Origin: Clostridiales bacterium
GTDB lineage: Bacteria; Bacillota; Clostridia; Oscillospirales; Oscillospiraceae
NCBI GenBank assembly: GCA_012728025.1
Contig: JAAYFX010000202.1
Location: forward strand, 1 to 32,247
Reading direction: 5' to 3'
DNA length: 32,247 nt
Shown here: positions 1,333 through 24,503 of the stretch, piece after piece
Numbering within the stretch: the stretch's first letter is position 1
How the letters are laid out: each line of letters opens with the position of its first letter
Made by a program: the position numbers and the translations under genes
Notes under the pieces: generated by a model
The model's input: only the letters and a program-made list of their open reading frames with translations
Database searches by the model: none
Told to the model about the DNA's origin: nothing

Positions 1333-1347
1333 TGCGGAGGTGATTGT

Positions 1348-3242: not shown

Positions 3243-3286
3243 ATGACGTTCTTGTAAGCCTAAATTTTGTAGGAGGATTATTATTT

Positions 3287-4549: not shown

Positions 4550-4561
4550 GCTTTGGCATAA

Positions 4562-4590
4562 ATCCGACCCCGCCAAAATCGGGGTCGGAT
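4562..4590 (+). other. Perfect 11-bp stem-loop in the eutH-eutQ spacer (no U-tract)
   Basis: atccgaccccg (4562-4572) pairs with cggggtcggat (4580-4590) around a 7-nt loop. The 10-mer ccccgccaaa recurs at 4568-4577 and 4592-4601, which allows an alternative pairing. Confidence 0.4.
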
Positions 4591-4667
4591 GCCCCGCCAA
4601 AGGGCCTTATACCCTAGGCGGTGAACACAGTTAAAGACAGTTGTGAGCTTTCGGGAAAGGAATCCAT

Positions 4668-5099: not shown

Positions 5100-5124
5100 A
5101 AGTTGTGGGGAAATTAAATACAGC

Positions 5125-7069: not shown

Positions 7070-7110
7070 AAAAGCCGGCGATGTCAGTCGGCATATACGG
7101 GGGAGAAAGC

Positions 7111-8031
7111 ATGAAAAAGAGACAATTTGCTTTGATATTGGCGCTGGCGCTGGGCTTAAGCCTTCTTGCCTCATGCGGCACAGTGCTTGAAAAGCCGGAG
7201 GAAAACACAGGTTCGTTTCAGCTCGTTGACATGGAGGGGCGAGTGCTTAATCTTGAAGGGCCGGCGGAGAGGGTTATTGCCCTTACAGCGTCAGATTGCG
7301 AGATACTTTTTGCTCTGGGAGCTGGGGATTTTGTTATTGCAAGAGGGCAGTATTGCAACTATCCGGAAAAGGCTTTGGAGCTTCAGGCGATTTCATCGGG
7401 TAGCGAAACTAACACAGAGCAGATAATAGCTTTAAAGCCGGACCTTGTCATAATGAACATGATGGACCAGACATTAAAGCAAATCGCTGCCATGGAAAAA
7501 GCAGGCATACCGGTGGTGGTAAACTCTGCCGAAAGCATAGATGAGGTTTATAAATCCATAGAGCTAATCGGCAAAGCTGTGGGAAAAGACATGGAAGCAG
7601 AGACTTTAGTTTCCGATATGAGGAAAAATTTTGAAGACATAAGCTCTAAGTCGATACAGGGAGAAAAAACAGTATATTTTGAGGTTTCACCTCTGGAATA
7701 CGGCCTTTGGACAGCGGGAAAAGGAACCTTCATGGATGAAATAGTGGAGCTTCTCGGCATGAAAAACGCCTTTCCCGACGTTTCGGGCTGGGCAGAAATT
7801 TCTCAGGAGCAGGTAATAGAAAGAAACCCCGATTATATTGTAACCATAAGCATGGGTACTTTGGGCCAGCCATCGCCAACGGAGGAAATAATGTCCCGCA
7901 GGGGATGGCAGGGCATAAAGGCAGTAAGTGAAGGTGCCGTGACGGAAATTGACTCCGATGAAATCGCAAGGCCAGGGCCAAGGCTTGTTTCAGCGGCCGA
8001 AGGGCTTTATGCCTTCTTCTACGGTGATTAG
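7111..8031 (+). CDS. BtuF-like ABC substrate-binding lipoprotein (cobalamin/siderophore family)
   Basis: The ORF track starts at 7081. I prefer the ATG at 7111, which has GGGGGAGA upstream. The signal peptide plus lipobox reads MKKRQFALILALALGLSLLASC. The motifs PDLVI and NPDYIV are typical of the PBP cluster A fold. Confidence 0.8.
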   Translation: MKKRQFALILALALGLSLLASCGTVLEKPEENTGSFQLVDMEGRVLNLEGPAERVIALTASDCEILFALGAGDFVIARGQYCNYPEKALELQAISSGSETNTEQIIALKPDLVIMNMMDQTLKQIAAMEKAGIPVVVNSAESIDEVYKSIELIGKAVGKDMEAETLVSDMRKNFEDISSKSIQGEKTVYFEVSPLEYGLWTAGKGTFMDEIVELLGMKNAFPDVSGWAEISQEQVIERNPDYIVTISMGTLGQPSPTEEIMSRRGWQGIKAVSEGAVTEIDSDEIARPGPRLVSAAEGLYAFFYGD

Positions 8032-9052
8032 GGGCGGGGGCTTTCGCCCTGCGGCCTATGGAGCCATGCTTTTGGGGACGGCTTTTGTTTTTATCATAAG
8101 CGTCTGCCTTGGCAGTGTAAGCGTACCTTTAAGGGATGTTTTCGCAAGTGTAGCGGCCGCCCTCTCCGGCGAAAAGCAGCTTTTAACAGGACACAGCGAC
8201 ATAATTTTATCGGTGCGGATACCAAGGGTGCTTTGCGTGGCTTTAACCGGTGCCTCGCTTTCCCTTTGCGGAGCGGCAATGCAGGGAATACTAAGAAACC
8301 CCCTTGCCGACGGAAGCACCTTGGGGGTTTCCGGCGGGGCTTCGCTGGGTGCTGTTTTGGCCATAAGCTTCGGCTCAAGGCTGCCCTTTTTCGGCGGCGG
8401 GGGAGTGGTGGTAACGGCGATAGTTTTTGCATTTATGTCCCTTGCTGTGATATTGGGCCTTTCCCACAAGCTGGACCGCTCCTTGTCCACAAACACCATT
8501 ATTCTTACGGGAATAGTGTATTCAATGTTTGTTTCCAGCATAATCAGCCTTGTTATTGCCTTTGCCGGTGACAAGGTTAAAACCATTACCTTCTGGACCA
8601 TGGGCTCTTTAGCCAACACCGACTATCTAAATGTGCTGACAATCCTCACAGCTCTTTTATTATGCGCAAGCCTTATTCTTATGAGAAGTCGTGAGCTTAA
8701 TGCCTTTGCCTTGGGGGAGGACAATGCCCGAAGTGTGGGGGTAAACGTAAAAAGAGTTAAGCTTGAGCTTCTTATAGCTGTTTCCATTCTTATAGGCGTT
8801 TGCGTGTCCATAGGCGGAACCATAGGTTTTGTGGGACTTGTAAGCCCCCATATGACCAGAATGCTCACAGGGCCAAACCACAAAAGGCTTCTTTCTGCCT
8901 CCATGTTTTTTGGGGCCTGCTTTCTTATGCTGGCAGACCTTTTGAGCAGAACAATAGTTAGACCAATGGAGCTTCCTGTGGGGGTTGTCACGTCTTTCAT
9001 AGGGGCTGTGGCCTTTGTTTTCATATTCAAAAAGTCGGGAAGGGTGGGCTGA
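8024..9052 (+). CDS. FecCD/BtuC-family ABC permease
   Basis: Polytopic protein with LCGAAMQGILRNPLADGSTLGVSGGASLGAV and the C-terminal ELPVGVVTSFIGAVAFVFIF typical of FecCD permeases. The start is uncertain: GTG 8024 (overlapping the upstream stop) or ATG 8066. The 7949 start in the ORF track overlaps the binding-protein gene and I reject it. Confidence 0.8.
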   Translation: MIRGGGFRPAAYGAMLLGTAFVFIISVCLGSVSVPLRDVFASVAAALSGEKQLLTGHSDIILSVRIPRVLCVALTGASLSLCGAAMQGILRNPLADGSTLGVSGGASLGAVLAISFGSRLPFFGGGGVVVTAIVFAFMSLAVILGLSHKLDRSLSTNTIILTGIVYSMFVSSIISLVIAFAGDKVKTITFWTMGSLANTDYLNVLTILTALLLCASLILMRSRELNAFALGEDNARSVGVNVKRVKLELLIAVSILIGVCVSIGGTIGFVGLVSPHMTRMLTGPNHKRLLSASMFFGACFLMLADLLSRTIVRPMELPVGVVTSFIGAVAFVFIFKKSGRVG

Positions 9053-9053
9053 T

Positions 9054-9815
9054 ATGCTTAAGGTAGAAAATCTTGGTGTTTCCTACGGAGATTTAAAAAT
9101 ACTGGATGGGCTGAGCTTCACCTTGGAGCAGGGGCAATGGCTTATGATAGCAGGGCCAAACGGGGCGGGCAAAAGCACCGTTTTAAGAGCCTTGTCAAGG
9201 GGCTGCCGTTACACAGGGCAAATAAGCCTTAAAGGCAGGGATATAAAAAGGTTTAAACCCCACATTCTGGCACAAAAGCTGGGCTTTTTATCCCAACGCC
9301 ACGAGGTCACATATCCCTTTAAGGTCAGGGAAGTTGTGGCTTTGGGAAGGTATGCCCATTCAAAAAATGCCCTTTACGGAGGGGCGGCAGGGGATGAGGA
9401 AAAAGTTTCGGAGGCTCTATCCCTGACGGGGCTTTCTGAACTTGCCGAAAAATCCGTACTGGAGCTTTCCGGAGGGGAACTTCAAAGAACCTTCATTGCC
9501 CAGCTTTTTGCCCAAGACCCTGACATAATAGTTTTGGACGAGCCAACAAACAGCCTTGACCTTATCTACCAAAAGCAGGTATTCCAGCTTATAGAAGGGT
9601 GGATAAAAAAGGAGGGCAGGGCGGTAATATCGGTTGTCCACGACCTTAGCCTTGCAAGGCTTTACGGAACAAAGGCGATTTTGCTTGATAGGGGAAGGGT
9701 GGTTGCTATGGGGCAGCCCGAGAAGGTAATAAGCGAAAAATATCTTAATCCTGTGTATTCCATGGATGTTTCCGGATATATGAGGGAAATTTTGTCCACA
9801 TGGCAGAGGGGATAA
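9054..9815 (+). CDS. ABC transporter ATP-binding protein (BtuD/FepC type)
   Basis: Walker A GPNGAGKST, signature LSGGELQR and Walker B IIVLDEPT. The ATG at 9054 lies 1 nt after the permease stop, so I reject the 9015 extension. Confidence 0.85.
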   Translation: MLKVENLGVSYGDLKILDGLSFTLEQGQWLMIAGPNGAGKSTVLRALSRGCRYTGQISLKGRDIKRFKPHILAQKLGFLSQRHEVTYPFKVREVVALGRYAHSKNALYGGAAGDEEKVSEALSLTGLSELAEKSVLELSGGELQRTFIAQLFAQDPDIIVLDEPTNSLDLIYQKQVFQLIEGWIKKEGRAVISVVHDLSLARLYGTKAILLDRGRVVAMGQPEKVISEKYLNPVYSMDVSGYMREILSTWQRG

Positions 9816-11052: not shown

Positions 11053-12024
11053 TTATGAGGGGCAGACTGAATGCTCCAGCTCTTGACTGTTTTCAACACT
11101 TTGGGAGATGGGCAGGCTTATTTTAATAGTCATTCCCATACCCTGTGAGCTTTGGGCAGAAATTGTTCCCCCCTGAGACTCTATGGCGGTTTTGGCAAGA
11201 TACAGCCCATGGCCATGGCCTATGGTTTTGTTGCTGCCTTGGAAATTCATTTCAAAGATGTACTGTGTCTGTTCTTCGCCCAGACCCAAGCCATCGTCTT
11301 TTATGGTGATATTGACAAAGGTGCCTGAGGCTTCAGCCATTATTGTCACATGACCTTCACGGCCCATGTATTTAAGAGAGTTTTCAAGGATGTTAAAAAT
11401 AACCTTGCTTATTTGATAAAAATCCCCCTCGATATAAAGACTATCCAAGGTGGAGATGGTTTGTATGTTGATGCCATGGTTTTTGGCAACAGTTTGCATA
11501 TCCTCGCCTATTTGACGCAGGAGAGCTATAATATCAAAACGTGAAAACTCCAAAGCAATTTCATCCGAAGCCCTGCATGAAGCCAGACGTTTTGTAAGGA
11601 TTTCGCTTATATACTGGGTGCGGTCAACTATTTTGCCAAGGTATTCTTTTTTCATTTCCTCGTTGGTGATGATGTCTTTTTCCAAAAGACCTGCATAACC
11701 CTGAACTATTGATAAAGGCATACGAAGCTGGTGGGACATAAGGCTGCGAAACTCCTCCAAGGCCTCATGGTTTGATTTGCTCATGGCGGCAAGCTCATCC
11801 TTATGGGCTTTTGCCTCATTGTCGGCAAGGGCTCTGAAAGCCTCATCCTGCTTTCGAGAGTCATTTAAAAGTTTTATTAATCTTCTTATATAAATGATAA
11901 GTATTGTAATGGCTGCCGCAAGACAGATGGTACAAGCTCCAAGGCTTATGTAAAGGTAAAGGATGGGAACTAAGGCCAGAAGTATCGCAAAGACTACCCA
12001 GATTATGCGGCTGTTTCTGAACAT
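11053..12024 (-). CDS. Sensor histidine kinase, intramembrane-sensing type (two N-terminal TM helices, no extracytoplasmic domain)
   Basis: H-box SHQLRMPLSIVQGY, N-box FNILENSLKY, and G-boxes IKDDGLGLG and GHGHGLYLAK. I prefer the ATG at 12024, which has AAGGAGGA upstream. The 12114 start would add a non-homologous extension across promoter-like AT-rich DNA. Confidence 0.85.
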   Translation of the reverse strand: MFRNSRIIWVVFAILLALVPILYLYISLGACTICLAAAITILIIYIRRLIKLLNDSRKQDEAFRALADNEAKAHKDELAAMSKSNHEALEEFRSLMSHQLRMPLSIVQGYAGLLEKDIITNEEMKKEYLGKIVDRTQYISEILTKRLASCRASDEIALEFSRFDIIALLRQIGEDMQTVAKNHGINIQTISTLDSLYIEGDFYQISKVIFNILENSLKYMGREGHVTIMAEASGTFVNITIKDDGLGLGEEQTQYIFEMNFQGSNKTIGHGHGLYLAKTAIESQGGTISAQSSQGMGMTIKISLPISQSVENSQELEHSVCPS

Positions 12025-12097
12025 TATGCGATTCCTCCTTAAGAATACTAAAAAACCCCTTAAAAATATGTTGAAAGCTGGAAAATAAAATGAGATA

Positions 12098-12106
12098 TGA
12101 TATAAT
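12098..12106 (+). promoter_or_regulatory. Candidate extended -10 element (TGaTATAAT) for the response-regulator/ATPase transcript
   Basis: An exact TGnTATAAT lies in the divergent intergenic region. No well-spaced -35 is present (TTGAAA sits 24 nt upstream). About 225 nt upstream of the RR start. Confidence 0.3.
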
Positions 12107-12248
12107 ATCCGCAAGCAGTTACCCTCAGGGGGCTGTGAACCTGTGGCATAATGGCCTAAAGGACATTATACAGATACAAGTGACCGGATAAAGGTAAAAA
12201 GCAAAATCTTCAGATGTGGTATGAATAAAAAGCACTTATTTTTCAGAT

Positions 12249-12286
12249 GCCTGTAAAGTAACTCTTATTATACACTATTTACAGGC
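12249..12286. repeat. 9-bp perfect inverted repeat gcctgtaaa(N20)tttacaggc in the HK/RR intergenic region
   Basis: Read directly from the sequence. Located 46 nt upstream of the RR start codon. It could be an operator or a leader hairpin. Confidence 0.4.
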
Positions 12287-12331
12287 TGCAATGCAATTAA
12301 ATTTGTAAAACCGCAGGGGGGGAATAAGCTT

Positions 12332-13012
12332 ATGTATAATGCACTTCTCGTTGAGGATGATAAGGATTTATCTATTATAACGCAGATGAACCTGACACAC
12401 GCAAACTATCAGGTAGATGCCGCATTCACCTGTCAGCAGGCTTTGGATTTTTTGGCGGGAAAGGAATACGACCTTATACTTTTGGACGTGGTGCTGCCCG
12501 ATAAGCGAGGGGATGAGCTGTGCAAAATAATCCGTGATGCCTGCACCTGCCCCATAGTGTTTATGAGCTGCCTTGACGACAGCAAAACCATAGTTAAGGC
12601 CCTGCGCAGCGGCGGCGACGATTATATGGTTAAGCCCATAAGCTATGACGAGCTTTTGGCTAGGGCAGATGCGGTTATCCGCCGCTCTAAAAACATAAGG
12701 GGCAATGATAAGCGGGGATTTCATCAGTTTAAGCAGTTTACTGTGGACACTGTCCGCCACAGAGTGCTGAAAGGTGAGGAGGAAATCTGCCTTTCGTCCA
12801 TTGAATACGAAATACTTAAATATATGGTAGAGCATCCGGATGAGCTTTTACTCTACCGTCAAATTTATGAAAACGTCTGGGATAGCGACAGTCTGGGTGA
12901 TGTGCGCACTGTTATGGTACATATTTCAAACCTTCGTAAAAAGCTGGACCCAGAGCGCACAGGCATAATAGAAACCGTACGTGGTGCGGGATACATATTC
13001 ACAAATATCTAA
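12332..13012 (+). CDS. OmpR/PhoB-family response regulator
   Basis: The receiver domain has the acidic pocket VEDD, phospho-acceptor LILLDVVLPD and the conserved Lys in YMVKP. The C-terminal winged helix reads LSSIEYEILKYM...VHISNLRKKL...IETVRGAGY. Confidence 0.9.
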   Translation: MYNALLVEDDKDLSIITQMNLTHANYQVDAAFTCQQALDFLAGKEYDLILLDVVLPDKRGDELCKIIRDACTCPIVFMSCLDDSKTIVKALRSGGDDYMVKPISYDELLARADAVIRRSKNIRGNDKRGFHQFKQFTVDTVRHRVLKGEEEICLSSIEYEILKYMVEHPDELLLYRQIYENVWDSDSLGDVRTVMVHISNLRKKLDPERTGIIETVRGAGYIFTNI

Positions 13013-13024
13013 GGAGGCGCCCCA

Positions 13025-15328
13025 ATGGCAAGTTTAAGTGAACTTTTTTCTCCTAGTAAAAGGGAAGTGCCCTTTGAAAGCTATCGTGAGTACACAGACT
13101 ATCTTTTTGCCTGCGTGGATATGCGCCTATCTGACTACATTGACGGGCTTATGGGGCTTTTTGCCAGCCAATCGGGAGGGTATAAAAACGTTATTTACCC
13201 TGATGTGGAAATTGCAAGGGACCTTTGCGACAAGCAGCTGGCGGAGTTTTTGCTGAAGTCCGGCGGGGAAACCGAAGATGAAAGCGGTTTTGCAAGGCCG
13301 CAAGAGCGGGCTGTGCCGCCAACAGAGCTGGATGAGCTTTTTGCCGAATTTGCCGAGGATGTTTCCTCGAGGGATGCGGGGGAGGGCCTTTCGGCCACAG
13401 ATTGCATGGAGCACATAAAAGACAGGGCAAAAAAAGCCCAAGGCAATATATTCATGCCCATGTACGAGCTTTGCGAAAAGCTGGGGCTTTCCCCTTTTAG
13501 CACCTTTTGCTTTGCCTGTGCTGTTTTATCCGCCACCCAGACAAGTTATGCCGGTGTTTTTCAGGTGGTTAACCAAAACGGCGCTTTGTCTGCTCCCACC
13601 ATCGAATCCGCTGCAAGAGTTTTTTACGGAAAGGATTTTTCCATAACCGAGGCATACAGTGAAATGTCCCTTGCACTAGAGCAGTTAACGCCGGTTTTTG
13701 CCCTTTCTATAAACAATGCAATGCCCTTTTCAACGGTTGTCTCTCCGGACAAGAGGATGATAGACTTTCTTTTCGGCCCCGAGCCAAACCGTATAGACGA
13801 AAACTATGCCCGTTTTTTCTCAAGACTTACAGATAAAAAGGAAATTGACCCCTTTATAGCAAACAGGGGCATCTTGGATGCTGTTAACATATTTTATGAT
13901 GACGGCGGGCGAATTGTTGCCCTTTGGGGAGATGAAGGGGCGGGAAGAAAGTTTACCATAACCCATTTCTGTCGGGATAGGGAAAAGGGCTGTGTTTCCA
14001 TCAACTGCACAAAGCTTTTTGTCTATGACTTTGCCTTTGTGGATAAGGCCCTTTGGGCTGCCGCCCGTGAATGTATTTTAACAGATTCCTGCGTCTGCCT
14101 AGACGGGCTTGCCTATCGTGAGGAGGAAAAGGAAAAGTTTTTCGGCTATATGGACTTGGCCTTTGGAAAGTTTACAAAATACGATATTCCCGCCTTTGCC
14201 GTCAGCATGGAAAAGCTGCCCATGAGGCAGATAAGCGACATGGATTTTGCCCAGATTGAAATTCCAACGCCGGACACAAGGGAACGTGAGCAGGTCTGGG
14301 ACCATTATGCACAGGGATACAGTTTTGCCGATGATGTTGACCTAACAGAGATGGCGGCAAAGTTTCTTTTCACATCGGGTAAAATAAAAAGTGCTATCCA
14401 TCAGGCAAAAACCCTTGCGGCCATGGATAAAAAAACCGATATCCCCCGCAGTATACTTTTCCAATCCTGCAACAACCAAATGAGCCACGAGCTTACCCAA
14501 AAGGCAACCCGTATTCCCGCAAAATTTGGCTGGAACGACATTGTTATGAATCCTGACCAGCGGCTTGCCCTTAAAAATGCCTGTGACCAGCTTATTTACC
14601 GCAAAAAAGTCTATGAAGAATGGGACTATCTGAAAAAATATCAATACGGCCGTGGGCTGTCTGTCCTTTTGTTCGGCGCCCCCGGAACGGGAAAATCTAT
14701 GTGCGCTCAGGTTATCGCAAACGAGCTTAATCTGGAGCTTTACAGGGTTGACCTATCCAAGGTTGTGGATAAATATGTAGGTGAGACGGAAAAGTCCATA
14801 TCCATGATTTTCAGGGAAGCGAAAAAGTGCAACGTAGTTTTATTTTTCGACGAGTGCGACACGCTTTTCGCAAAGCGCAGTGACGACGGCGGCTCGAACC
14901 AATCGTCCAACAACAACAAAACTGCCCTGCTTTTGCAGGAGGTGGAGGCTTACGATGGGGTTTCTGTCATGGCAACAAACTATAAGCACAATATAGACCC
15001 CGCCTTTTTCCGCCGCATGAAGTTTATAGTGGAATTTCAGTTTCCTGATGTGGAAACCCGCAAAATACTTTGGAATGCCACAATCCCGAAAAACACACCC
15101 TTGGCCGAGGATGTGGACATAGATTTTCTTGCCCAGCGCTTTGAGTTTGTGGGTGGAAACATAAAAAACTGCATACTCAATGCAGCCTTTTTGGCGGCTG
15201 CCGACCCAGAAGCCGAGGGGCAGGTGCATATGAAGCACTATTTACAGGCCATACGCTATGAATTTGTTAAAACCGGCAAGGTATTCACCCGTGCGGACTT
15301 TGAGCCTTATGCCCATCTTGTTCTCTAG
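13025..15328 (+). CDS. AAA+ ATPase with long N-terminal domain, Afp15/Pvc15-like (CIS-associated ATPase)
   Basis: 767 aa. Walker A GAPGTGKS (14675-14698) and Walker B VVLFFDECD (14834-14860). The flanking LYRVDLSKVVDKYVGETEKSISMIFREA, ATNYKHNIDPAFFRRMKFIVEFQFP and GGNIKN match my memory of the single-AAA ATPases found in eCIS loci. The AAGGAGG RBS overlaps the RR stop, with a 12-nt gap. Confidence 0.75.
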   Translation: MASLSELFSPSKREVPFESYREYTDYLFACVDMRLSDYIDGLMGLFASQSGGYKNVIYPDVEIARDLCDKQLAEFLLKSGGETEDESGFARPQERAVPPTELDELFAEFAEDVSSRDAGEGLSATDCMEHIKDRAKKAQGNIFMPMYELCEKLGLSPFSTFCFACAVLSATQTSYAGVFQVVNQNGALSAPTIESAARVFYGKDFSITEAYSEMSLALEQLTPVFALSINNAMPFSTVVSPDKRMIDFLFGPEPNRIDENYARFFSRLTDKKEIDPFIANRGILDAVNIFYDDGGRIVALWGDEGAGRKFTITHFCRDREKGCVSINCTKLFVYDFAFVDKALWAAARECILTDSCVCLDGLAYREEEKEKFFGYMDLAFGKFTKYDIPAFAVSMEKLPMRQISDMDFAQIEIPTPDTREREQVWDHYAQGYSFADDVDLTEMAAKFLFTSGKIKSAIHQAKTLAAMDKKTDIPRSILFQSCNNQMSHELTQKATRIPAKFGWNDIVMNPDQRLALKNACDQLIYRKKVYEEWDYLKKYQYGRGLSVLLFGAPGTGKSMCAQVIANELNLELYRVDLSKVVDKYVGETEKSISMIFREAKKCNVVLFFDECDTLFAKRSDDGGSNQSSNNNKTALLLQEVEAYDGVSVMATNYKHNIDPAFFRRMKFIVEFQFPDVETRKILWNATIPKNTPLAEDVDIDFLAQRFEFVGGNIKNCILNAAFLAAADPEAEGQVHMKHYLQAIRYEFVKTGKVFTRADFEPYAHLVL

Positions 15329-15368: not shown

Positions 15369-15599
15369 ATGGCCTTAAAAAAGGACTTAGACTGGCGCAT
15401 AGACCAGCAAAATAAAAGGAAAAGAACCCTCCCCATTGATGAAGAGCCGGAGGATATGGAGCTTTGGCTTCAAAGGGAAAGCGGCAACTCTATAAACACG
15501 CAAAAAAGCGTGTTTGACAAAAAAATCGGCAAAGACGGAATAAACACCGAGCCTTCGGTTTTTGACAAATTTGCCGTTTTTAAAAGTCAGCAGGAGTAA
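15369..15599 (+). CDS. Small hypothetical protein (76 aa) with an internal repeat; coding status uncertain
   Basis: GGAGGA lies 7 nt upstream of the ATG. The protein is hydrophilic. It contains the tandem repeat INTQKSVFDK/INTEPSVFDK, which coincides with two DNA/RNA hairpins (see findings). Confidence 0.3.
   Translation: MALKKDLDWRIDQQNKRKRTLPIDEEPEDMELWLQRESGNSINTQKSVFDKKIGKDGINTEPSVFDKFAVFKSQQE
15492..15569 (+). repeat. Two 30-nt repeat units (15492-15521 and 15540-15569), each with a hairpin core
   Basis: ATAAACAC-N13-TTTGACAAA occurs twice, 48 nt apart. The flanks are identical and the cores differ (GCAAAAAAGCGTG versus CGAGCCTTCGGTT), yet both keep stem potential with the flanks. Confidence 0.6.
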
Positions 15600-15682: not shown

Positions 15683-16534
15683 CTAATTTTCTTTTGACGT
15701 CAGGAACAAGGCAGACCTTGAAAGGGGGCGCCCTTCAGGAGCCAGCCTTTCTAAAAGAGAGGTAGAAATTGCGTTTACGCAGTTTACTATAATTTCGGTG
15801 TCTTTTGGGTATTTTTCTAAAGCCCTTTGATAGGAAGCTGACAGCATTGAGGAAAAAGCGGCAGAGCCGCCTGCTCCGGAATCAGCGTAGGCAAGGGTAA
15901 GCTGCCCGTTAAAGGAGCGGTCAAACACCATAAATCCGTCTATCCGTGAGCCGTCCATAACGGCAACGGAAAGCTCAGGGTCAAGTTCTGCCTTATCAAG
16001 GGGAAGGGGCAGTATGGCCTCCTCGGATATACGGGCCGAGCGGTCCAACTCCCGTACACAGGATGTGGGGATTTCCAAAAATTGATGCACTTTCAGTCCT
16101 TCAGCGGCTTTTGAGAAAAACGGGGATTTTGAAAGGGAAGAAAGGTTGACGGAGTATATGGTTTCCCTTGGCTTTTTAAATTCAAAGCCTGAGTGCCGCA
16201 GAAAGTTTTCATACATAGAAAGCTCCCCGTTTGTCACAGTGAAGTCCGAGCGTATACCAAAAAGCGAGCTTTGCCCCTCCATACAGCTTTTTAGGCTTTC
16301 AAGAAGAAGCTTGCCGCCACCCCTGCCCCGCTTGACGGGGGCAACAAAAAAGGATGAAATCTCAAAATATCCGTCTCTTGGGCCGCCGGCAAGGGCGCCG
16401 CAGGCCTCCTCATTTTCAACAAGGCCCAAAGCGAAAATGGGTTTGCCTTCTTTCAAAAGCAAAGCGGCATCCGGAAGGAGAAAAGAGGTAAAAAAGTCAA
16501 GGTTTCCACGGTCTATTATGGTCGTTTCCATCAT
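15683..16534 (-). CDS. GNAT-family acetyltransferase-like protein (283 aa)
   Basis: Acetyl-CoA motif A-like FFVAPVKRGRGGGKLLLESL. It begins 12 nt after the stop of the 503-aa gene, with GGGGGGAGGA upstream. Confidence 0.6.
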   Translation of the reverse strand: MMETTIIDRGNLDFFTSFLLPDAALLLKEGKPIFALGLVENEEACGALAGGPRDGYFEISSFFVAPVKRGRGGGKLLLESLKSCMEGQSSLFGIRSDFTVTNGELSMYENFLRHSGFEFKKPRETIYSVNLSSLSKSPFFSKAAEGLKVHQFLEIPTSCVRELDRSARISEEAILPLPLDKAELDPELSVAVMDGSRIDGFMVFDRSFNGQLTLAYADSGAGGSAAFSSMLSASYQRALEKYPKDTEIIVNCVNAISTSLLERLAPEGRPLSRSALFLTSKEN

Positions 16535-18257: not shown

Positions 18258-18286
18258 TTGACAAGGCAGGGCCTGCGGATTAAACT
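18258..18286 (+). promoter_or_regulatory. Candidate sigma-A promoter (TTGACA-17 nt-TAAACT) for the MATE operon
   Basis: TTGACA at 18258-18263, a 17-nt spacer, then TAAACT at 18281-18286. This lies about 85 nt upstream of the RBS-supported GTG at 18370. Confidence 0.3.
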
Positions 18287-18536
18287 GTTAATATGGAAGA
18301 AAGATGAAGAGTTTGTCCTTGAGCTTTGGAGCAAGGCCATGAACTTTGATATAAATGGGGGGAAGCTAGGTGGAAAAGCAGGAGGAAAAATCCCTGCGGG
18401 ACAATGATGTTTTCATACGCAAACCTTCAGAAAGTTTCTTTTCCCCTCTATACTGTCTCTTTTAGGCGGCACCATATCAAGCTTTTCCGGCGGGGTTATA
18501 GCAGGTAATGTATTAGGTGCCGGCGGACTTGCAGCC

Positions 18537-20135
18537 ATGGGCATTGTAAGCCCTGTCTTTTTCGTCTACACAAGCCTTGGCTCTCTTATAGGTGTTGGGG
18601 GCGCTGCCCTTTCCTCCCGCCGTTTGGGACGGGATGACCATGAAGGGGTCAGCAGGCTTTTTTCCCTTTCTCTTGCACTTATGCTGGTGGTTGGGCTTTT
18701 GGTTACAGTTGGGGCTCTTGTGTTTCTTGAAAAGCTTCTTGACATTCTTGGGGCTCAGGGGGAGATAAGAAGCGCAGCCAGAGATTATTGCCTTTACTTT
18801 ATCCCCGGGGCCATAACAACCATGCTTTTATACATACCCCTTAACTTCTTCCGTATAACGGGAAAGCCGAACATAGGCGTTTGGATGTTTGGCATAATGG
18901 CTCTGGGTAACATATGCTTCAGCCTTGTGTTTTTGCTGGTGTTTGACATGGGCATGGGGGGCATAGGTCTTTCGGCGGTATTGTCAAATTTGGCGGCCCT
19001 ACTATATAGCCTCCATGGGTTTTTCAAAAAGGACTCATACCTTCGTCTTGTAAGCTTTAAAAGTGAAATAAAAACCACAGGGGAGCTTCTTGCCACAGGC
19101 AGCCCCATGGCTCTTACAAACCTTTTCACGGTTTTGAGAACACTTTTATATAACAGGCTGCTGCTTAGTATTTTAGGACTGGGAGGGCTTGCGGTATTTA
19201 CCGTTTTGGCAAATGTGAACACCTTTGCCCTTTCCATCCTTTTGGGAGTTTCCCAAACTATTATTCCTCTAACGGGGGTTTTCTTCGGGGAAAAAGACTA
19301 TGTAAGCATCCGCCATGTTATGGGGGCTTCCCTGCGTTGGGGGCTTTTTCTGGCAACGGCCTTTGGTCTTGCTCTGGCTGTCTTTTGGAAAAGCATATGT
19401 CACATTTTCGGTCTTTACGACGAGAGCCTTTTCCAGTCGGCCATGTTTGCAATTTTCATGTTTGCCTTGAGTATGCCCTTTGCCATGGTTACAAATCTTT
19501 ATCAGTTTCACTTTATGACCATAGGTGTGCTATGGTTTTCAAACCTTATATCCGCCTGCCGCTGCCTTATCCTGCCTCTTGCCGCATCACTTTTTTTATC
19601 AAAGGTTTCCCCCCTTGCAGTTTGGGCGGGCATACCTGCGGGCGAGGCTTTGACGGTGTTGCTGACTCTTGCTGTTTCATATATTTACGGCAAAAAACGG
19701 GGACTTTCAAGGCTTCTTCTTTTAAATGAGGAAGACGAGAAAAATTCCCGCTCCATAGCCTTTTCTGTTAAAAACGATACGGATTCCATAATAAATGCCT
19801 CGGAAAAGATTTCGGAGTTTTCGGCGGTCAATAAAATCGATGAAAAAAGAGCCATGTTTATTTCTCTGGCCTTAGAGGAACTTTTATTGTCCATATCCCA
19901 AAATGCCTTTGAAGACCATGACGAGGGCTATATGGACGTTCGTCTCCTGTCGGGAACAGACCATGTTATCCTGCGCATACGAAACGGCGGTCGGGAATTT
20001 GACCCCATAAGCTTCTACGAAAGCAATCCGGATAATATGGAAGAAAGCCTTGGAATTAAAATGGTGGCTGCCTCTGCCCGTGACATAAAATATACAAGAA
20101 CCCTCGGCGTTAACAACCTAAGCGTACTGATATAA
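18537..20135 (+). CDS. MATE-family efflux transporter fused to a C-terminal RsbW/SpoIIAB-like HATPase domain; the 5' end appears frameshifted
   Basis: About 395 aa of polytopic MATE-like sequence is followed by about 130 aa collinear with the RsbW-like protein at 23526 (LALEELLLSISQNAF, VILRIRNGGREFDP, ESLGIKMV, YTRTLGVNNLSVLI). The same frame stays open upstream to 18408 and encodes TM1-like FRKFLFPSILSLLGGTISSFSGGVIAGNVLG without a start codon. Confidence 0.7.
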   Translation: MGIVSPVFFVYTSLGSLIGVGGAALSSRRLGRDDHEGVSRLFSLSLALMLVVGLLVTVGALVFLEKLLDILGAQGEIRSAARDYCLYFIPGAITTMLLYIPLNFFRITGKPNIGVWMFGIMALGNICFSLVFLLVFDMGMGGIGLSAVLSNLAALLYSLHGFFKKDSYLRLVSFKSEIKTTGELLATGSPMALTNLFTVLRTLLYNRLLLSILGLGGLAVFTVLANVNTFALSILLGVSQTIIPLTGVFFGEKDYVSIRHVMGASLRWGLFLATAFGLALAVFWKSICHIFGLYDESLFQSAMFAIFMFALSMPFAMVTNLYQFHFMTIGVLWFSNLISACRCLILPLAASLFLSKVSPLAVWAGIPAGEALTVLLTLAVSYIYGKKRGLSRLLLLNEEDEKNSRSIAFSVKNDTDSIINASEKISEFSAVNKIDEKRAMFISLALEELLLSISQNAFEDHDEGYMDVRLLSGTDHVILRIRNGGREFDPISFYESNPDNMEESLGIKMVAASARDIKYTRTLGVNNLSVLI

Positions 20136-20215
20136 GCGCCTGCTTACAAGTTAGACAGGGGCTATGGATTTTCTGTTGCTCACAAGTTTTGACATTAAGG
20201 ATGGAAGTGCTGAAA

Positions 20216-21286
20216 ATGGTAGAACTTACGAGGGAAAAAACCGGAGAAAAATTAAGCTGCGATTTTAAAGAAGTCAACCCCGATGCAATGGAGGATATTT
20301 TAGGCTTTCAAGCCTGCATACGTGACGAATATGGGGAGAGCTATCCACGAGATTATATATATAAGCCTCATGAGCTGGCGGAAAAAATAAGGCAAGGCGA
20401 GATTTTATGCTATCTTGCCTTAAGTGACAGGAAAGACCCTGTGGCAAGCCTTGCCCTGACCCCCTTCAAAGGGCTTGAAAGGGTGCCTGAGATGACCATG
20501 CACGTAGTCAGAAAGACATATAGGGGCTTTGGTGTCGGCACTGAGTTTACAAAAGCTGTGTTAGATAGCCCCCCCATAGACGAGTACAATGCTGTTGCAA
20601 TACATTCTGTCACCTTCCATTCCATAGCCCAGCGTCAGACCATAAGCTGTGGCTTTTTACCCACAGGCTTTTTGCTTTCCGTTCACAGCAACGATATATT
20701 AAAGCATTCCTTTGACATAAACGGCTGCCGCAAACAGTCCTTTGCCGTAGCCGTTTTGCCCAAGGGAAAAAAAGATGCGGGCAGTCTGCACTTGCCGCCG
20801 GAGCATGAAAGTTTTATAAAAGGCATATACGAAAAACTTAGCGTGGTCTTTAAGCAGGCAGATGGAAAAAACTCTGAAGGTAAAACCGAATATCACTGTG
20901 AACAGGACGAAACCCATCTTACAAAAACAACAGAAGTTTTTAAATGCGGTGAAGATTTTGAAAAGCTTACGGATGCACTTTTACAAAAGCCGTATAAAAT
21001 GGGGCAAACCATAAATGTTTTTATAAACTTAAATGACCCTTGTGCGGTTTATGCTTATGAGGTTCTTAAAAATCGTGGCTTTATTTTCACAGGGCTTCAT
21101 CCCCTGTGTGCAAACGGTGAATTTATGATAATGCACCACCCGCTGGGCTTGGGCTTGCCCTTAGACAGGCTGGAAATTGATGAGGGATACAGGCGGGTTT
21201 ACGACTATATAGCTTATGGTCAGATAAAAAGCCAGAGGGAAGGTTCGGCAAATGAAGAAAAGATGCCTATGCTGCCGATTACATGA
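20216..21286 (+). CDS. GNAT-family acetyltransferase-like protein with an uncharacterised ~200-aa C-terminal extension
   Basis: Motif A-like HVVRKTYRGFGVGTEFTKAVL. The start is uncertain (TTG 20189, ATG 20201 or ATG 20216); 20216 has GGAAG 9 nt upstream. Confidence 0.55.
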   Translation: MVELTREKTGEKLSCDFKEVNPDAMEDILGFQACIRDEYGESYPRDYIYKPHELAEKIRQGEILCYLALSDRKDPVASLALTPFKGLERVPEMTMHVVRKTYRGFGVGTEFTKAVLDSPPIDEYNAVAIHSVTFHSIAQRQTISCGFLPTGFLLSVHSNDILKHSFDINGCRKQSFAVAVLPKGKKDAGSLHLPPEHESFIKGIYEKLSVVFKQADGKNSEGKTEYHCEQDETHLTKTTEVFKCGEDFEKLTDALLQKPYKMGQTINVFINLNDPCAVYAYEVLKNRGFIFTGLHPLCANGEFMIMHHPLGLGLPLDRLEIDEGYRRVYDYIAYGQIKSQREGSANEEKMPMLPIT

Positions 21287-21314: not shown

Positions 21315-23438
21315 ATGAAAACCATACGGGGAAAAATATTCTTAATACTTCTCGTTATCTCATTATTCTCTCTGGTTCTTATGGGCGTTGTCACCTTTAT
21401 AAGCGTGGACATGATAAGAACAGACGTTTTTGAGGCCAGCAGCAACCTTGGTGTCACAGCGGGAGACAGCAGCGGCAAGGCTGTTGAAACGCAGATACTC
21501 GAAAGGCTCAGCTCCACTGCCGAAACAAAGGCATCAATAGCTGACGAAAAGCTTGGAAAACAGCAGACATATACACAGGTTTTGGCAAACTATGCAGGGG
21601 AGCTTTATGCAAATCCCGAGAATTATTTTGGAAAAGATGCTTCGCCGCCGGAGCCTGCTCTTGCAGGCATAAATACGGCGCAGCTTTTGCTTGCGGAAGG
21701 GCTGTCTCTATCAGAGCTTGAGGACGAAATTGGCCTTGTGGCAAACTGCAATGAAATATTACTGCATATTACGGAAGTTGACGAGGATATAACAGCGGAC
21801 TACATAGCCACTGAAAGCGGATTTGTCATAATGGTGGACCCCGATTCGGACAAAAAGCCTGAGAATATAGACGGCAGACAAAGGGGTTGGTATATAGACG
21901 CAAAGGGTGAGGGAAGTCTTATTTGGACGGATGTTTTCAGCGACGCCATGGGGCGTGGGCTTGCTATAACCTGTGCCGCCCCTGTTTTTGACTCTTTGGG
22001 AAACTTTAAAGCCGTTGTGGGCATAGGCGCTTTGATGACAAATTTAAACGAAGAAATAATAAGCACCTCCATAGGTGAAACAGGTTATGCCTTTGTGGTT
22101 AACCAAGGGGGCAATGTTATAATCTCCCCTTATATCCAAAAAGGTGAGAATGGGGAGATTATAACTGCCGATATGACCCAGCACGAAAATCCCGAAATTG
22201 CAAAGATGATGGAAGATATGCTTGCGGGTGTTTCTTCCGTTGCTCAGGTTGAATATGAGGGAAGGCAGGTTTATATGGCCTGCCAGCCCATGTCTGTTTT
22301 GCCTTGGGGTGTTGTGACTGTTATGGATGTGGATGAGGCCCTTCGCCCCGTCAGCGAGGTTTACGATAGCATAATGGACATGACGGATGCCGCAATACTG
22401 GCTGTGGACAATTCTGTGAAAACTGCGCTTATAGCCATAGCCGCCATTGTCTGCGCTGTTTTGGTTATGGTTTTCATATTAGGTTCTTTTTTCTCAAAAA
22501 AACTCACAGGGCCCTTGGCTCACTTAAGCCGTGGAGTGGAGGAAATATCTGAAGGTAATCTGGATACGAAGCTGGATATTAAAACCGGAGATGAAATTGA
22601 AACTTTGGCTCTGGCCTTTAACTCCATGACAGGCAGCCTTCAGCGGCATATAAAAGAGCTAACGGAGGTTACGGCAGAAAAAGAGCGCATAGGAGCAGAG
22701 CTTAATGTTGCAACGCAAATTCAGGCCTCCATGCTGCCCTGTATTTTTCCGCCCTTCCCCGAGCATAAGGAGCTTGACATTTTTGCAAGTATGCGGCCTG
22801 CTAAGGAAGTGGGGGGCGACTTTTACGACTTTTTCCTTGTGGACGAAGAAAACCTCGGTGTTGTTATAGCGGACGTTTCCGGCAAGGGTGTGCCGGCGGC
22901 GCTGTTTATGGTTATAGCAAAAACCCTTATCAAAAACCACACGCAAAACGGCGAAGCGCCCTCGCAGGTTTTAACCTCGGTTAATACCCAGCTTTGCGAA
23001 AATAACGATGCCGCCATGTTCGTAACCGCTTGGATGGGGGTTTTGAACATTAAGACCGGCAAAATGGTTTATGGCAACGCAGGCCATAACCCCCCGCTTT
23101 TAAAGCGCTCTGATGGAAGCTTTACCTACCTTAAATCCGACCCAGCCTTTGTTTTGGCAGGGCTTGAAAACATATCCTATGGGGAGTTTGAGCTGAACCT
23201 TTCCGGCGGGGATATTTTGTATCTATATACAGATGGGGTGACAGAGGCCACTGATATTTCCGATGAGCTTTTCGGAGAGGAACGGCTTAAAGATGTTTTG
23301 GATGAAAACTCGGATAAAGACATGAAGGGGATTTTAAATGCTGTGGAGGAGGCTATGGAAGTATTTGTGGGCGAAGCGGAGCAGTTTGATGATATTACAA
23401 TGCTTGGAATTAAATTTAAAGGCAGGGAAAACGCATAG
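21315..23438 (+). CDS. Membrane sensor phosphatase: TM, dCache-like domain, TM, HAMP, PP2C/SpoIIE (RsbU-like)
   Basis: I prefer the ATG at 21315 (AGGAGG 5 nt upstream) over 21252. TM1 is IFLILLVISLFSLVLMGVVTFISV. A periplasmic Cache-like segment contains GWYIDAK...TCAAPVFD...GYAFVVNQGGNVI. TM2 is followed by a HAMP domain (LTGPLAHLSRGVEEISEGNLD...ETLALAFNSM). PP2C motifs are GGDFYDF, ADVSGKGVPAALFM, LYLYTDGVTEA and FDDITML. Confidence 0.85.
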   Translation: MKTIRGKIFLILLVISLFSLVLMGVVTFISVDMIRTDVFEASSNLGVTAGDSSGKAVETQILERLSSTAETKASIADEKLGKQQTYTQVLANYAGELYANPENYFGKDASPPEPALAGINTAQLLLAEGLSLSELEDEIGLVANCNEILLHITEVDEDITADYIATESGFVIMVDPDSDKKPENIDGRQRGWYIDAKGEGSLIWTDVFSDAMGRGLAITCAAPVFDSLGNFKAVVGIGALMTNLNEEIISTSIGETGYAFVVNQGGNVIISPYIQKGENGEIITADMTQHENPEIAKMMEDMLAGVSSVAQVEYEGRQVYMACQPMSVLPWGVVTVMDVDEALRPVSEVYDSIMDMTDAAILAVDNSVKTALIAIAAIVCAVLVMVFILGSFFSKKLTGPLAHLSRGVEEISEGNLDTKLDIKTGDEIETLALAFNSMTGSLQRHIKELTEVTAEKERIGAELNVATQIQASMLPCIFPPFPEHKELDIFASMRPAKEVGGDFYDFFLVDEENLGVVIADVSGKGVPAALFMVIAKTLIKNHTQNGEAPSQVLTSVNTQLCENNDAAMFVTAWMGVLNIKTGKMVYGNAGHNPPLLKRSDGSFTYLKSDPAFVLAGLENISYGEFELNLSGGDILYLYTDGVTEATDISDELFGEERLKDVLDENSDKDMKGILNAVEEAMEVFVGEAEQFDDITMLGIKFKGRENA

Positions 23439-23525
23439 AAACACCGCAGTTGTGGAAGAATCTACCTAAGGGTCGCCGCAGCTTACAGGCAGGCGGCATA
23501 TAAACCGACAAGGAGCTGAAAGCCC

Positions 23526-23948
23526 ATGAAAGAACTTATTATAAGCGCAGAAACAGAGCGTCTGGAGGAAGTTCTGGCCTTCGTTCGAGGGATACTGGAA
23601 AGCTATAATTGCCCTATGGAAGACCTTATCGCCATAGAGATTGCGGTGGAGGAGATATATGTTAACATTGCCCACTATGCCTATCATCCGGAGGTTGGCG
23701 AGGCAAGCATACGCTGCCGTGTGGAAAAAGAGCCCCTGCGGGTAATTATAGAGTTTATGGACGGGGGGATTCCCTATAATCCCCTTGAAAAGGCAGACCC
23801 CGATATAAGCCTTTCCGCAGAAGAAAGGGATGTTGGCGGCCTTGGTATATACATGGTGAAAAATAGCATGGATGATGTGGCCTACAAACGTGAAAACGGG
23901 AAAAATATTTTCACAATACAGAAAAATTTAAGAGAAACGGCAGGCTAA
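23526..23948 (+). CDS. RsbW/SpoIIAB-type anti-sigma-factor-like serine kinase (HATPase_c_2)
   Basis: 140 aa. N-box EEIYVNIAHYAY and G-boxes FMDGGIPYNP and GGLGIYMVKNSMD. AAGGAG RBS upstream. Confidence 0.8.
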   Translation: MKELIISAETERLEEVLAFVRGILESYNCPMEDLIAIEIAVEEIYVNIAHYAYHPEVGEASIRCRVEKEPLRVIIEFMDGGIPYNPLEKADPDISLSAEERDVGGLGIYMVKNSMDDVAYKRENGKNIFTIQKNLRETAG

Positions 23949-23973
23949 AAAGGCCCCCCATAAAAAATGCGTA

Positions 23974-24013
23974 AAAAGCCAAGACCCTTATACAATTATG
24001 GGTCTTGGCTTTT
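23974..24013. terminator. Bidirectional intrinsic terminator between the kinase and STAS genes
   Basis: aaaagccaagaccc (23974-23987) pairs perfectly with gggtcttggctttt (24000-24013) around a 12-nt loop. Confidence 0.75.
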
Positions 24014-24078
24014 ATATATGGATTTAAAAACAGGATAAGAAAAAAGCTGAAATATAGCTTTTTGAGCTTAAATCCCCT

Positions 24079-24378
24079 TTAGTTAATGGTCAGAATTTTT
24101 GAAAAGCCCACAGATTCCAATATGGAAAACACCGCCGGTGAAACATTTTTAAGTTCCATGGTAAGCCCCTTTGAAGCCGCTGTCTTTTGCCCGATAAGAA
24201 GGGCACGAAGTCCCGCACTGCTTATGTAAGGCACAGCGGCAAAATCAACCGTTACGGTTTTTGCCGTTTGAAAGGCTTTTAGCAGGGCATCTTGAAGCTG
24301 GGGGCTGGTGTTGGTGTCTATCCGGCCCTCTATGGCCAAAATAGTGTTTGCGCCCTCCTGCGATGTTTTGATAGTCAT
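24079..24378 (-). CDS. Single-domain STAS protein (RsbV/SpoIIAA-like anti-anti-sigma factor)
   Basis: I prefer the ATG at 24378 (AAGGAG upstream), giving 99 aa; I reject the 24474 extension. ILAIEGRIDTNTSPQLQDAL...VDFAAVPYISSAGLRALL carries the conserved phosphorylatable Ser context. Confidence 0.85.
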   Translation of the reverse strand: MTIKTSQEGANTILAIEGRIDTNTSPQLQDALLKAFQTAKTVTVDFAAVPYISSAGLRALLIGQKTAASKGLTMELKNVSPAVFSILESVGFSKILTIN

Positions 24379-24503
24379 ACTTACACGCTCCTTGAATTTA
24401 TTAGCCGTCAAGCCCGAAACCCCTGAGACAAAAGCTTGAAATCGTGGCTTTGGGCATCGGAGATTTAAAAACAATTTATAAAGAAAAGTTTGACCGCATA
24501 TTT

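Follow-up and report, generated by a model that had tools for sequence, protein, structure and literature searches.

The window, a 32,247-nucleotide (nt) stretch of Clostridiales DNA analysed here over its full length (contig JAAYFX010000202.1), carries a contractile injection system (CIS) locus that includes a partner-switching module formed by a STAS protein of the anti-sigma-antagonist type, an RsbW-like serine kinase and a membrane-bound sensor phosphatase. The switch genes sit within the CIS locus, flanked by baseplate genes and by genes of an AAA+ ATPase and a two-component pair (11053-15328). The set is a partner-switching module by its STAS, kinase and phosphatase, and it has no adjacent sigma factor. 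This sigma-less module, a partner-switching set of known families in a new CIS context, is an integral part of the Clostridial CIS locus, and sequence comparison among related loci supports well that the genomic association between CIS and STAS is conserved. The locus suggests that a signalling switch, so far undescribed for injection systems of this type, governs the machine. We favour, with middling confidence, a dedicated partner switch with a non-sigma output that acts on CIS function.

Components of the partner switch

The module and its borders comprise the following genes and intergenic elements.

18258-18286, plus strand: promoter-like match TTGACA-17-TAAACT (10/12, consensus match only) located in the divergent spacer that precedes the MatE/GNAT/PP2C/kinase operon
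About 18411-20135, plus strand: MATE transporter whose C-terminus carries a fused, degenerate RsbW-like domain (MatE and HATPase_c_2; NCBIfam MATE)
20189-21286, plus strand: GNAT-like protein, about 355-365 amino acids, with an acetyltransferase-fold N-terminus and an unknown C-terminal half (weak Pfam Acetyltransf_1)
21315-23438, plus strand: membrane sensor phosphatase with a first transmembrane segment, an extracytoplasmic dCache_1 domain, a second transmembrane segment, HAMP and PP2C (SpoIIE family)
23526-23948, plus strand: RsbW/SpoIIAB-like serine kinase, 140 amino acids (HATPase_c_2, 5.5e-24)
23949-24078: convergent kinase/STAS spacer, 130 nt (-39.3 kcal/mol; z -5.25 on the plus and -3.77 on the minus strand against shuffled sequences)
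23974-24013: GC-rich hairpin AAAAGCCAAGACCC / GGGTCTTGGCTTTT with an A-run on one side and a T-run on the other, which may act as bidirectional terminator for both the kinase operon and STAS
24041-24063: second hairpin, A/U-rich, 9 bp, 16-38 nt past the STAS stop, with a U-run next on the minus strand
24079-24378, minus strand: STAS protein of the anti-sigma-antagonist type, 99 amino acids, last gene of the CIS strand (Pfam STAS 1.2e-16, STAS_2)
24379-24503, minus strand: gpI-like/STAS spacer, exactly 125 nt (fold z +0.29 against shuffled sequences)
24504-25592, minus strand: gpI/Cis12-like last baseplate gene, 362 amino acids (Tail_P2_I; TIGR02242 above its cut-off; partial CIS12_fam match)

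An earlier note made from the sequence alone had recognised the three partner-switching components, which Pfam, sequence motifs and PDB relatives confirm. It took 21315-24378 for a complete set abutting the CIS baseplate. The module is indeed next to the baseplate but, rather than merely adjoining the CIS genes, lies inside their locus between baseplate and ATPase. The three parts are there, but the MatE::HATPase_c_2 and GNAT-like genes upstream in the same operon had been missed.

The closest solved relatives of the STAS protein are SpoIIAA-like proteins and RsbV (PDB matches 4hyl, TM1442 and RsbV), and it scores 61.3 bits for NCBIfam ant_ant_sig, whose cut-off is 53.45. Translation starts at ATG 24378, preceded by an AAGGAG ribosome-binding site, to give a polypeptide whose 99 residues match nearly all orthologues. 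The phospho-serine of the SpoIIAA/RsbV type is retained together with the surrounding motif for kinase and phosphatase binding. The predicted phospho-site Ser54 lies within the essentially invariant Y51-x-S53-S54-A-G-L-R58, S54 being found in 72/72 orthologues, and aligns in the PDB matches with the serine of D-S-S/T-G at the start of helix 2 (SpoIIAA Ser58, RsbV Ser56).

The kinase has B. subtilis RsbW and SpoIIAB as its closest solved relatives (best PDB match RsbW, 6m36). Its N, G1 and G2 boxes are intact, with N47, D79-x-G81 and G104-G105-x-G107 invariant in 30 orthologues. The phosphatase gene, whose ATG at 21315 follows an AGGAGG ribosome-binding site, encodes a protein with Pfam matches to dCache_1 (1.4e-23), HAMP (5.8e-13) and, across the full-length profile, SpoIIE/PP2C (3e-49). 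Hydropathy reveals two hydrophobic segments, at residues 3-35 and 361-397 (with approximate cores at 8-30 and 370-392), that bracket dCache_1. The PP2C metal-site motifs GGDFYD, DVSxKG, YTDG and DDIT are invariant in 21 orthologues. Its best NCBIfam match is SiaA, with 105.9 bits, far under the 700-bit cut-off. The dCache_1 sensor is common to 19 of the 21 CIS-linked phosphatases, and the idea of a variable sensor input as a feature of the system was dropped for this reason. Some loci have a solute-binding protein gene and an SDF symporter gene ahead of that for the phosphatase; speculatively, these neighbours may point to an amino acid or a dicarboxylate as its cue.

The single RsbW-like protein described in the earlier note is accompanied by a second RsbW-like domain, fused to the MATE transporter. 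This domain is homologous to the kinase (hhalign probability 96%), but its catalytic boxes are degenerate in 16/16 orthologues: the N-box Asn47 is replaced by L/S/I, the G1 Asp79 by C/N/S, and the G2 Gly104-Gly105 by E/D and S/V/A. Because the N-box, G1 and G2 residues are lost throughout, we take it to be a pseudokinase, a membrane-tethered, cytoplasmic RsbW fold able only to bind. It is the most obvious receptor of STAS in the locus.

The GNAT-like gene product belongs to a family whose profile matches N-acetyltransferases in the PDB. Sixteen related loci have it, in each case flanked by the MatE fusion and PP2C genes, and among the loci analysed it occurs in CIS-linked cassettes only and not in non-CIS ones. 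No ribosome-binding site was seen before TTG 20189, and the true start is probably slightly downstream of this codon.

No sigma factor was found in the window, as the earlier note had claimed: Pfam scans of the 29 open reading frames (ORFs) that cover it gave no Sigma70 domain, and phmmer searches of all ORFs of at least 50 codons with SigF, SigW and ECF-like seeds, which may miss divergent sigma factors, gave none either. A neighbouring sigma factor is also exceptional among related loci. Sigma-like ORFs lie within 10 kb in only 3 of 80 CIS loci (L078, L020 and L039), and 1 of 80 metagenome loci retrieved by their STAS has such an ORF.

Position and conservation of the STAS gene

Related CIS loci were retrieved via the gpI-like protein alone, with no STAS criterion, by a profile built from 30 of the 91 database homologues of the window protein. 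The best 80 of 186 gpI-like relatives among GTDB species representatives were kept, each with 10-kb flanks, and their six-frame ORFs were searched with the window proteins. Their gpI-like proteins are 34-67% identical to that of the window and originate from Oscillospiraceae, Oscillibacter, Flavonifractor, Agathobaculum, Lachnospiraceae, Acetatifactor, Dorea, Eubacterium, Family XIII and Gracilibacteraceae. Gene content was counted in the 57 loci whose sequence extends 8 kb or more past the gpI-like gene. A reverse set consisted of 80 metagenome loci picked by STAS similarity alone, 62 of them informative, and an independently annotated genome of 3.25 Mb, with a gpI-like protein 58% identical to that of the window, served for comparison. 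In exact-sequence look-ups the window STAS had no match and the kinase matched only one 1.3-kb contig.

Conservation of the gene neighbourhood in related genomes had been set as a test of the association, and it is borne out: a STAS protein of about 99 amino acids follows the gpI-like gene on the same strand in 70/80 loci, within 200 nt in 67 of these. The gap between the two genes is 13-200 nt in most loci and often 13-30 nt. The 10 loci without STAS after the gpI-like gene comprise 3 truncated contigs, 6 that lack it and 1 where it is relocated. The small ORFs found after the gpI-like gene in STAS-less loci (families f24 and f42) were tested as diverged STAS proteins and are not STAS; families f42, f28 and f30 look like wrong-frame ORFs.

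The earlier note had placed STAS on the CIS strand 125 nt past the last baseplate gene, with no strong terminator between them, and convergent with the kinase operon across a shared bidirectional terminator. Both placements hold. The scan found no terminator-like site in 24379-24503, whose folding energy is no better than that of shuffled sequence, and the strongly folding 23949-24078 spacer contains the candidate bidirectional terminator. A simple hairpin-plus-T-run search in 72 loci found a terminator-like hairpin before STAS in 1/72 as opposed to 18/72 within 200 nt after it. With such hairpins commoner after STAS than before it, sequence evidence places STAS last in the structural operon.

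The 3.25-Mb genome has a co-directional string of sheath, tube, two CIS_tube, GPD-like, spike, gp25, 1010-, 707- and 362-amino-acid baseplate proteins and STAS, with a gpI-like/STAS gap of 16 nt. Past STAS, its kinase, phosphatase, GNAT and MatE genes form an inverted block like that of the window. Many loci of Lachnospiraceae and Eubacterium instead have an operon that runs on co-directionally into MatE::HATPase_c_2, GNAT, PP2C and kinase genes. Short gaps, hairpin positions and the co-directional string thus support, at the level of sequence, the earlier suggestion that STAS is co-transcribed with the CIS structural genes. The promoter-like match at 18258-18286 is one of the two best in the scanned region, where the consensus scan was uninformative (15 sites against 10.9 +/- 3.6 expected) and gave 0 sites inside the 125-nt gap.

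Gene order beyond STAS is highly variable, and that of the window is inverted relative to many relatives. Its convergent layout is a local inversion common to the 3.25-Mb genome and to L002, the closest relative in the genome collection. L002 also has a GGDEF gene (11951-13207, minus strand) between kinase and phosphatase. Among the 57 loci counted, STAS is present in 52, the AAA+ ATPase in 42, the kinase in 32, the phosphatase in 20 and the MatE fusion in 13, and in 14 STAS stands alone, none of the MATE, FtsE-like, kinase and phosphatase genes lying within 10 kb. The Oscillibacter clade has loci of this STAS-only type. That STAS is kept more often than its enzymes fits a role as the element closest to the CIS. 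PP2C and kinase are fused in L028, L036 and L046.

An FtsE-like ABC ATPase gene directly follows STAS in 19/57 loci. These stand-alone ATPases (211-261 bits against a cut-off of 264.85) are found in Lachnospiraceae-type loci at about 11400-12200 (L029, L031-L033, L035, L038-L041, L043, L049, L055, L056, L063, L065, L068-L070, L072 and L077). No FtsX-like or other permease partner was recognised beside the gene. In L074 an FtsE-like protein is fused to an RsbW-like kinase domain (11444-12634). The STAS/FtsE-like pair is reminiscent of the STAS/ABC-ATPase pair MlaB-MlaF.

The STAS proteins linked to CIS form one contiguous block in a neighbour-joining tree, and the nearest neighbour carries the same label for 80/80 CIS-linked and 53/54 non-CIS sequences. 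Mean identity is 0.56 within the CIS-linked group, 0.53 within the non-CIS group and 0.42 between them. The phospho-site is common to both groups, as are the core residues G18, R19, D21, Y51, S53-R58, K65, G91 and F92. L33, F36 and T66, located in helices 1 and 2, are invariant in 77/77 CIS-linked proteins only and variable in the sister group, which also varies at the further CIS-clade invariant positions Q29, I32, Q37, G63 and S69.

The sister STAS proteins occur mostly in stand-alone cassettes with MatE::HATPase_c_2, PP2C and/or kinase genes, which account for many other metagenome loci. Among 25 non-CIS loci of at least 6 kb, PP2C is found in 14, the kinase in 14 and the MatE fusion in 10, and STAS adjoins MatE::pseudokinase in CIS and non-CIS cassettes alike. 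From this occurrence it seems that a pre-existing Clostridial cassette was probably recruited into the CIS locus, after which STAS would have come under a new clade-specific constraint. The stand-alone STAS/MATE::pseudokinase/Cache-PP2C cassette, with or without the kinase and with neither sigma factor nor CIS, is common in gut, rumen and termite metagenomes (e.g., L111, L144, L148, L153, L157, L158, L116, L136, L138 and L161). Literature searches found no published description of it.

Proposed role and competing explanations

In the mechanism that we propose, the kinase would phosphorylate STAS Ser54 and hold STAS inactive. A ligand sensed by the Cache domain would switch on the PP2C domain via HAMP to generate unphosphorylated STAS, which would bind a partner other than an anti-sigma/sigma pair. 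One candidate receiver is the cytoplasmic degenerate RsbW-like domain of the MATE protein, the ancestral neighbour of this STAS family; another would be some CIS component, as the residues invariant only in CIS-linked STAS suggest. The net effect would be a post-translational licensing of a membrane-proximal CIS step (docking, firing or release), and transcription of the locus would be run separately by the adjacent histidine kinase/OmpR-type pair. Such a CIS-proximal role is favoured because STAS persists beside the CIS as its enzymes and transporter-type neighbours vary from locus to locus, because the CIS-linked clade has its own invariant residues, and because the separate, conserved two-component pair by the ATPase can handle transcription.

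A more specific version, which we consider quite improbable, is that STAS acts as a phospho-switchable docking adaptor of a CIS working inside the monoderm cell. Unphosphorylated STAS, produced along with the baseplate, would bridge the latter to the MATE pseudokinase or, in Lachnospiraceae, to the FtsE-like ATPase, an extracellular ligand of Cache-PP2C deciding the time and place of membrane anchoring and firing. If true, this would be a mode like that of type VI secretion systems (T6SS) or of the Streptomyces CIS, with a new kind of trigger.

Several observations weigh against a dedicated role in CIS function. STAS is not present in L010, L018, L034, L057, L064 and L067 despite adequate downstream sequence, and in L051 it is relocated to after the ATPase; it is therefore dispensable for building the machine. 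Within 10 kb, the kinase is missing from about 40% of the 57 loci and the phosphatase from about 65%. Roughly half of the loci carry no kinase or phosphatase in that range. The gpI-like gene is immediately upstream of STAS in 7 of the 62 informative metagenome loci and not in the other 55, and the presence of the closest non-CIS STAS proteins in stand-alone cassettes implies that the module has a CIS-independent function. No hidden RsbW- or STAS-like domain that could serve as docking site was found by hhalign in the spike, gp25, 1017- and 708-amino-acid, gpI-like, CIS_tube and YqbQ-like proteins or in the AAA+ ATPase. All unexpected matches had a probability of 7.5% or less, the others being those expected (PP2C::kinase fusions, MatE fusion and histidine kinase). 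Moreover, the MATE fusion gene of the window has a 1-nt deletion or frameshift near 18410-18420 relative to its orthologues. The N-terminal residues that match these (…SLRDNDVFI) are in a different frame from the remainder, so that the first in-frame start is ATG 18537. Either the frameshift is real and the gene is on its way to becoming a pseudogene, or the assembly is wrong here.

The kinase could also sequester a sigma factor encoded elsewhere. According to this explanation, which we regard as unlikely, the RsbW-like protein would be the anti-sigma factor of a remote sigma factor and dephosphorylated STAS would free the latter to transcribe the CIS operon, with positive feedback as for rsbV in the sigB operon. 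It is consistent with the closest solved relatives of the kinase being the true anti-sigma factors RsbW and SpoIIAB, and with a STAS score above the cut-off of the anti-sigma-antagonist family. A regulator inside the operon under its own control is common, rsbV-rsbW-sigB being an example. In L078 an ECF-type sigma-like ORF (11566-12093, plus strand) comes directly after STAS, the sole such case among related loci, and L020 and L039 have sigma-like ORFs within 10 kb. These three loci contrast with the window and with the 77/80 loci that show no sigma factor within 10 kb. The kinase, which would be the output element of such a scheme, is absent from 25/57 loci whereas STAS is kept in 52/57; the conserved histidine kinase/OmpR-type pair already lies beside the ATPase; and a membrane-tethered, catalytically dead RsbW-like domain has no role in sigma release.

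The switch might alternatively regulate an envelope transporter, either MATE via the pseudokinase or the FtsE-like ATPase in Lachnospiraceae, and not the CIS particle. We assign a low probability to this possibility, in which the transporter-type protein would render an accessory service to the CIS such as envelope remodelling or lysis for particle release, cofactor export or self-protection. STAS domains are known to regulate transport proteins such as SLC26/SulP transporters and MlaB-MlaF. In CIS-linked as in stand-alone cassettes, the STAS and MatE::pseudokinase genes are direct neighbours whose stop and start codons often overlap, and the frequent position of the FtsE-like gene next after STAS and the kinase-domain fusion of L074 point in the same direction. 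A transporter as target does not account for the 14/57 loci that keep STAS without MATE, FtsE-like, kinase or phosphatase genes nearby. A partner also present in the sister cassettes leaves unexplained the STAS residues invariant only in CIS loci. The FtsE-like gene has no recognised FtsX-like or permease partner, and the MATE gene of the window is frameshifted.

Neutral hitch-hiking of a cassette with no functional tie to the CIS cluster, for which one may invoke the occurrence of the same cassette type without CIS, the variable gene order downstream of STAS and its inversion in the window, is extremely unlikely given that the position, strand and ~99-amino-acid length of STAS are conserved across several families down to ~35% gpI-like identity, that the gaps preceding it are very short, that its CIS-linked clade looks monophyletic and has its own invariant residues, and that STAS stays while its surroundings are shuffled or lost. 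A function in anti-phage defence was rejected: PADLOC gave no match for any switch protein, and the one resemblance, to IetA/TRIP13, was confined to the AAA domain of the ATPase.

The preferred reading, a switch with a non-sigma output acting on the CIS, would lengthen the short list of such partner switches by a well-defined example. To our knowledge, the control of assembly, firing and release in phage-tail-like injection systems is largely unknown outside the T6SS, and we know of almost nothing on the control of the CIS of Gram-positive gut commensals. The near-constant STAS in the structural operon offers a concrete, testable handle on this control, and it is accompanied by a kinase, by a pseudokinase tethered to the membrane and by a sensor predicted to bind a ligand outside the cell. 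This STAS is present in species representatives of several Clostridia families, among them the cultured strains Oscillibacter valericigenes An890 (L025) and Pseudoflavonifractor phocaeensis An507 (L005), and draws attention to a STAS/MATE::pseudokinase/PP2C cassette that is widespread in anaerobic Firmicutes and so far uncharacterised. If the sensor ligand were found, it could be used to turn on such systems in engineered delivery applications.

Known systems and neighbouring genes

The module shares with RsbU/RsbV/RsbW and SpoIIE/SpoIIAA/SpoIIAB of Bacillus a single-domain STAS protein with its serine, a GHKL kinase and a PP2C/SpoIIE phosphatase. It differs from them by the absence of a cognate sigma factor, in the window as in 77/80 related loci, by a STAS gene set apart from the kinase at the end of a structural operon, and by the additional dead RsbW-like domain fused to a MATE transporter. 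In Bordetella the sigma/anti-sigma pair BtrS/BtrA belongs to the regulon of BtrU/BtrV/BtrW, proteins on which type III secretion depends. Like the window module, the latter is a PP2C/STAS/RsbW-type trio tied to an injection machine, with an output beyond simple sigma release (PMC8256260), although that machine is a type III secretion system rather than a contractile phage-tail-like one and belongs to another phylum with another envelope. RbaV/RbaW/RbaY of Rhodobacter capsulatus offers a STAS-centred switch acting on a domesticated phage-derived particle, with STAS regarded as the output (PMC8256260; Mercer and Lang 2014). There the genes lie outside the structural operon of the particle, which is a capsid-containing gene transfer agent.

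SiaABCD of Pseudomonas aeruginosa comes to mind from the SiaA match of the window phosphatase and from the GGDEF gene of L002. In this system and in SypA-SypE of Vibrio fischeri the unphosphorylated STAS is the active species, as in our proposal (PMC8256260). Unlike SiaABCD, the window module has a CIS as its genomic partner, no diguanylate cyclase or GGDEF gene occurs in the window, and the SiaA match (105.9 bits) falls far short of the 700-bit cut-off. STAS proteins with non-sigma outputs include SypA, BtrV and RbaV (PMC8256260). In function, the Btr, Rba and SypA/SiaC-type switches come nearest to the window module.

The locus resembles those of the Afp/PVC extracellular CIS (eCIS) and of the Streptomyces cytoplasmic CIS by its spike, gp25, TIGR02243/Cis11-type and Cis12-type proteins, by the sheath and tube proteins of the syntenic 3.25-Mb genome cluster and by an AAA+ ATPase that may correspond to Afp15/Pvc15, and differs from them in that no tail-fibre gene was recognised in the window locus. 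PpkA/PppA/Fha1 of the Pseudomonas H1-T6SS provides a precedent for post-translational phospho-control of a contractile machine by an envelope or extracellular cue. Its components belong to unrelated families (Hanks kinase, PP2C and FHA protein), and Pfam gave no Pkinase or FHA match in the scanned window ORFs. Regulators reported for eCIS loci in Geller 2021 (PMC8213781) are GerE/LuxR, BTAD, RfaH and histidine kinases, and SpoIIE figures there as a rare 'cloud' domain with 18 occurrences. STAS is not listed in the eCIS surveys of Chen 2019 and, for the part available, Geller 2021; kinase, phosphatase and anti-sigma terms are absent from Chen 2019. A literature search on contractile injection combined with STAS or partner switching found no description joining the two, the only meaningful matches being gene-transfer-agent papers.

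The remaining features of the window are the following.

1-5100: end of an ethanolamine-utilisation cluster
5509-9815: cobalamin salvage and uptake genes
Between the cobalamin genes and the histidine kinase: DUF2804 gene
11053-12114, minus strand: histidine kinase (Pfam), candidate transcriptional regulator of the locus
12332-13012, plus strand: OmpR-type response regulator (Pfam), 12 nt before the ATPase, candidate regulator of the locus
13025-15328, plus strand: AAA+ ATPase, 767 amino acids, with an N-terminal winged-helix region (Pfam AAA and WHD), at the far side of the CIS locus
15369-15599, plus strand: small SVFD-repeat protein
15683-16534, minus strand: GNAT-like protein, 283 amino acids
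16547-18058, minus strand: 503-amino-acid protein with no family match, candidate cargo
25664-27790, minus strand: Baseplate_J/TIGR02243-type baseplate protein, 708 amino acids
27808-30861, minus strand: large baseplate protein, 1017 amino acids, partial TIGR02243 match, conserved in 67 loci
30824-31243, minus strand: gp25-like baseplate wedge protein (GPW_gp25, 1.3e-16)
31322-32143, minus strand: spike/hub protein with a gp5/VgrG OB domain (Phage_base_V, 6.8e-21)

The CIS baseplate set is present in the window, with the spike OB domain, gp25, gp6/J-like (TIGR02243) and Cis12/gpI-like proteins. The spike is the last CIS gene of the window; sheath and tube genes are seen only in the syntenic cluster of the 3.25-Mb genome, in which the same strand carries Phage_sheath_1/1C and Phage_T4_gp19 genes further upstream. 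Pfam detected no capsid or terminase domain in the window ORFs and recognised no tail-fibre-type domain from baseplate to ATPase, a region where unannotated proteins such as that of 503 amino acids could hide one.

The AAA+ ATPase is found downstream of the baseplate in the same 42/57 loci counted above. The unit of histidine kinase, response regulator and AAA+ ATPase is conserved in Oscillospiraceae relatives (L003, L004, L007, L008, L017 and L025), and the two-component pair by the ATPase is a second, separate signalling input to the CIS locus. SVFD-repeat polypeptides of 70-100 amino acids, with repeated 'GINTxxSVFDxxAVF' motifs, an acidic N-terminal part and no Pfam match, are conserved beside the ATPase gene, usually just upstream and, in the window, downstream of it. 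Besides the window they are found in L018, L031, L034, L037, L051, L054-L056, L060, L061, L066 and L074, and could be adaptors or substrates of the ATPase.

The 503-amino-acid protein has no Pfam, NCBIfam or PADLOC match and is shared only with the closest relatives L002, L082, L162 and, partly, L026; where it lies and how patchily it is distributed make it a candidate cargo or toxin. Two distinct GNAT-like proteins are conserved, that of 15683-16534 in 17 loci and that of 20189-21286 in 16, and the N-terminal domains of both resemble protein N-alpha-acetyltransferases (Naa50/60, ARD1 and RimI). In Agathobaculum L021 (11491-13917) and in L026, a protein of about 800 amino acids with S-layer-homology domains is encoded between STAS and the kinase, possibly a cell-wall-anchored accessory of the CIS.

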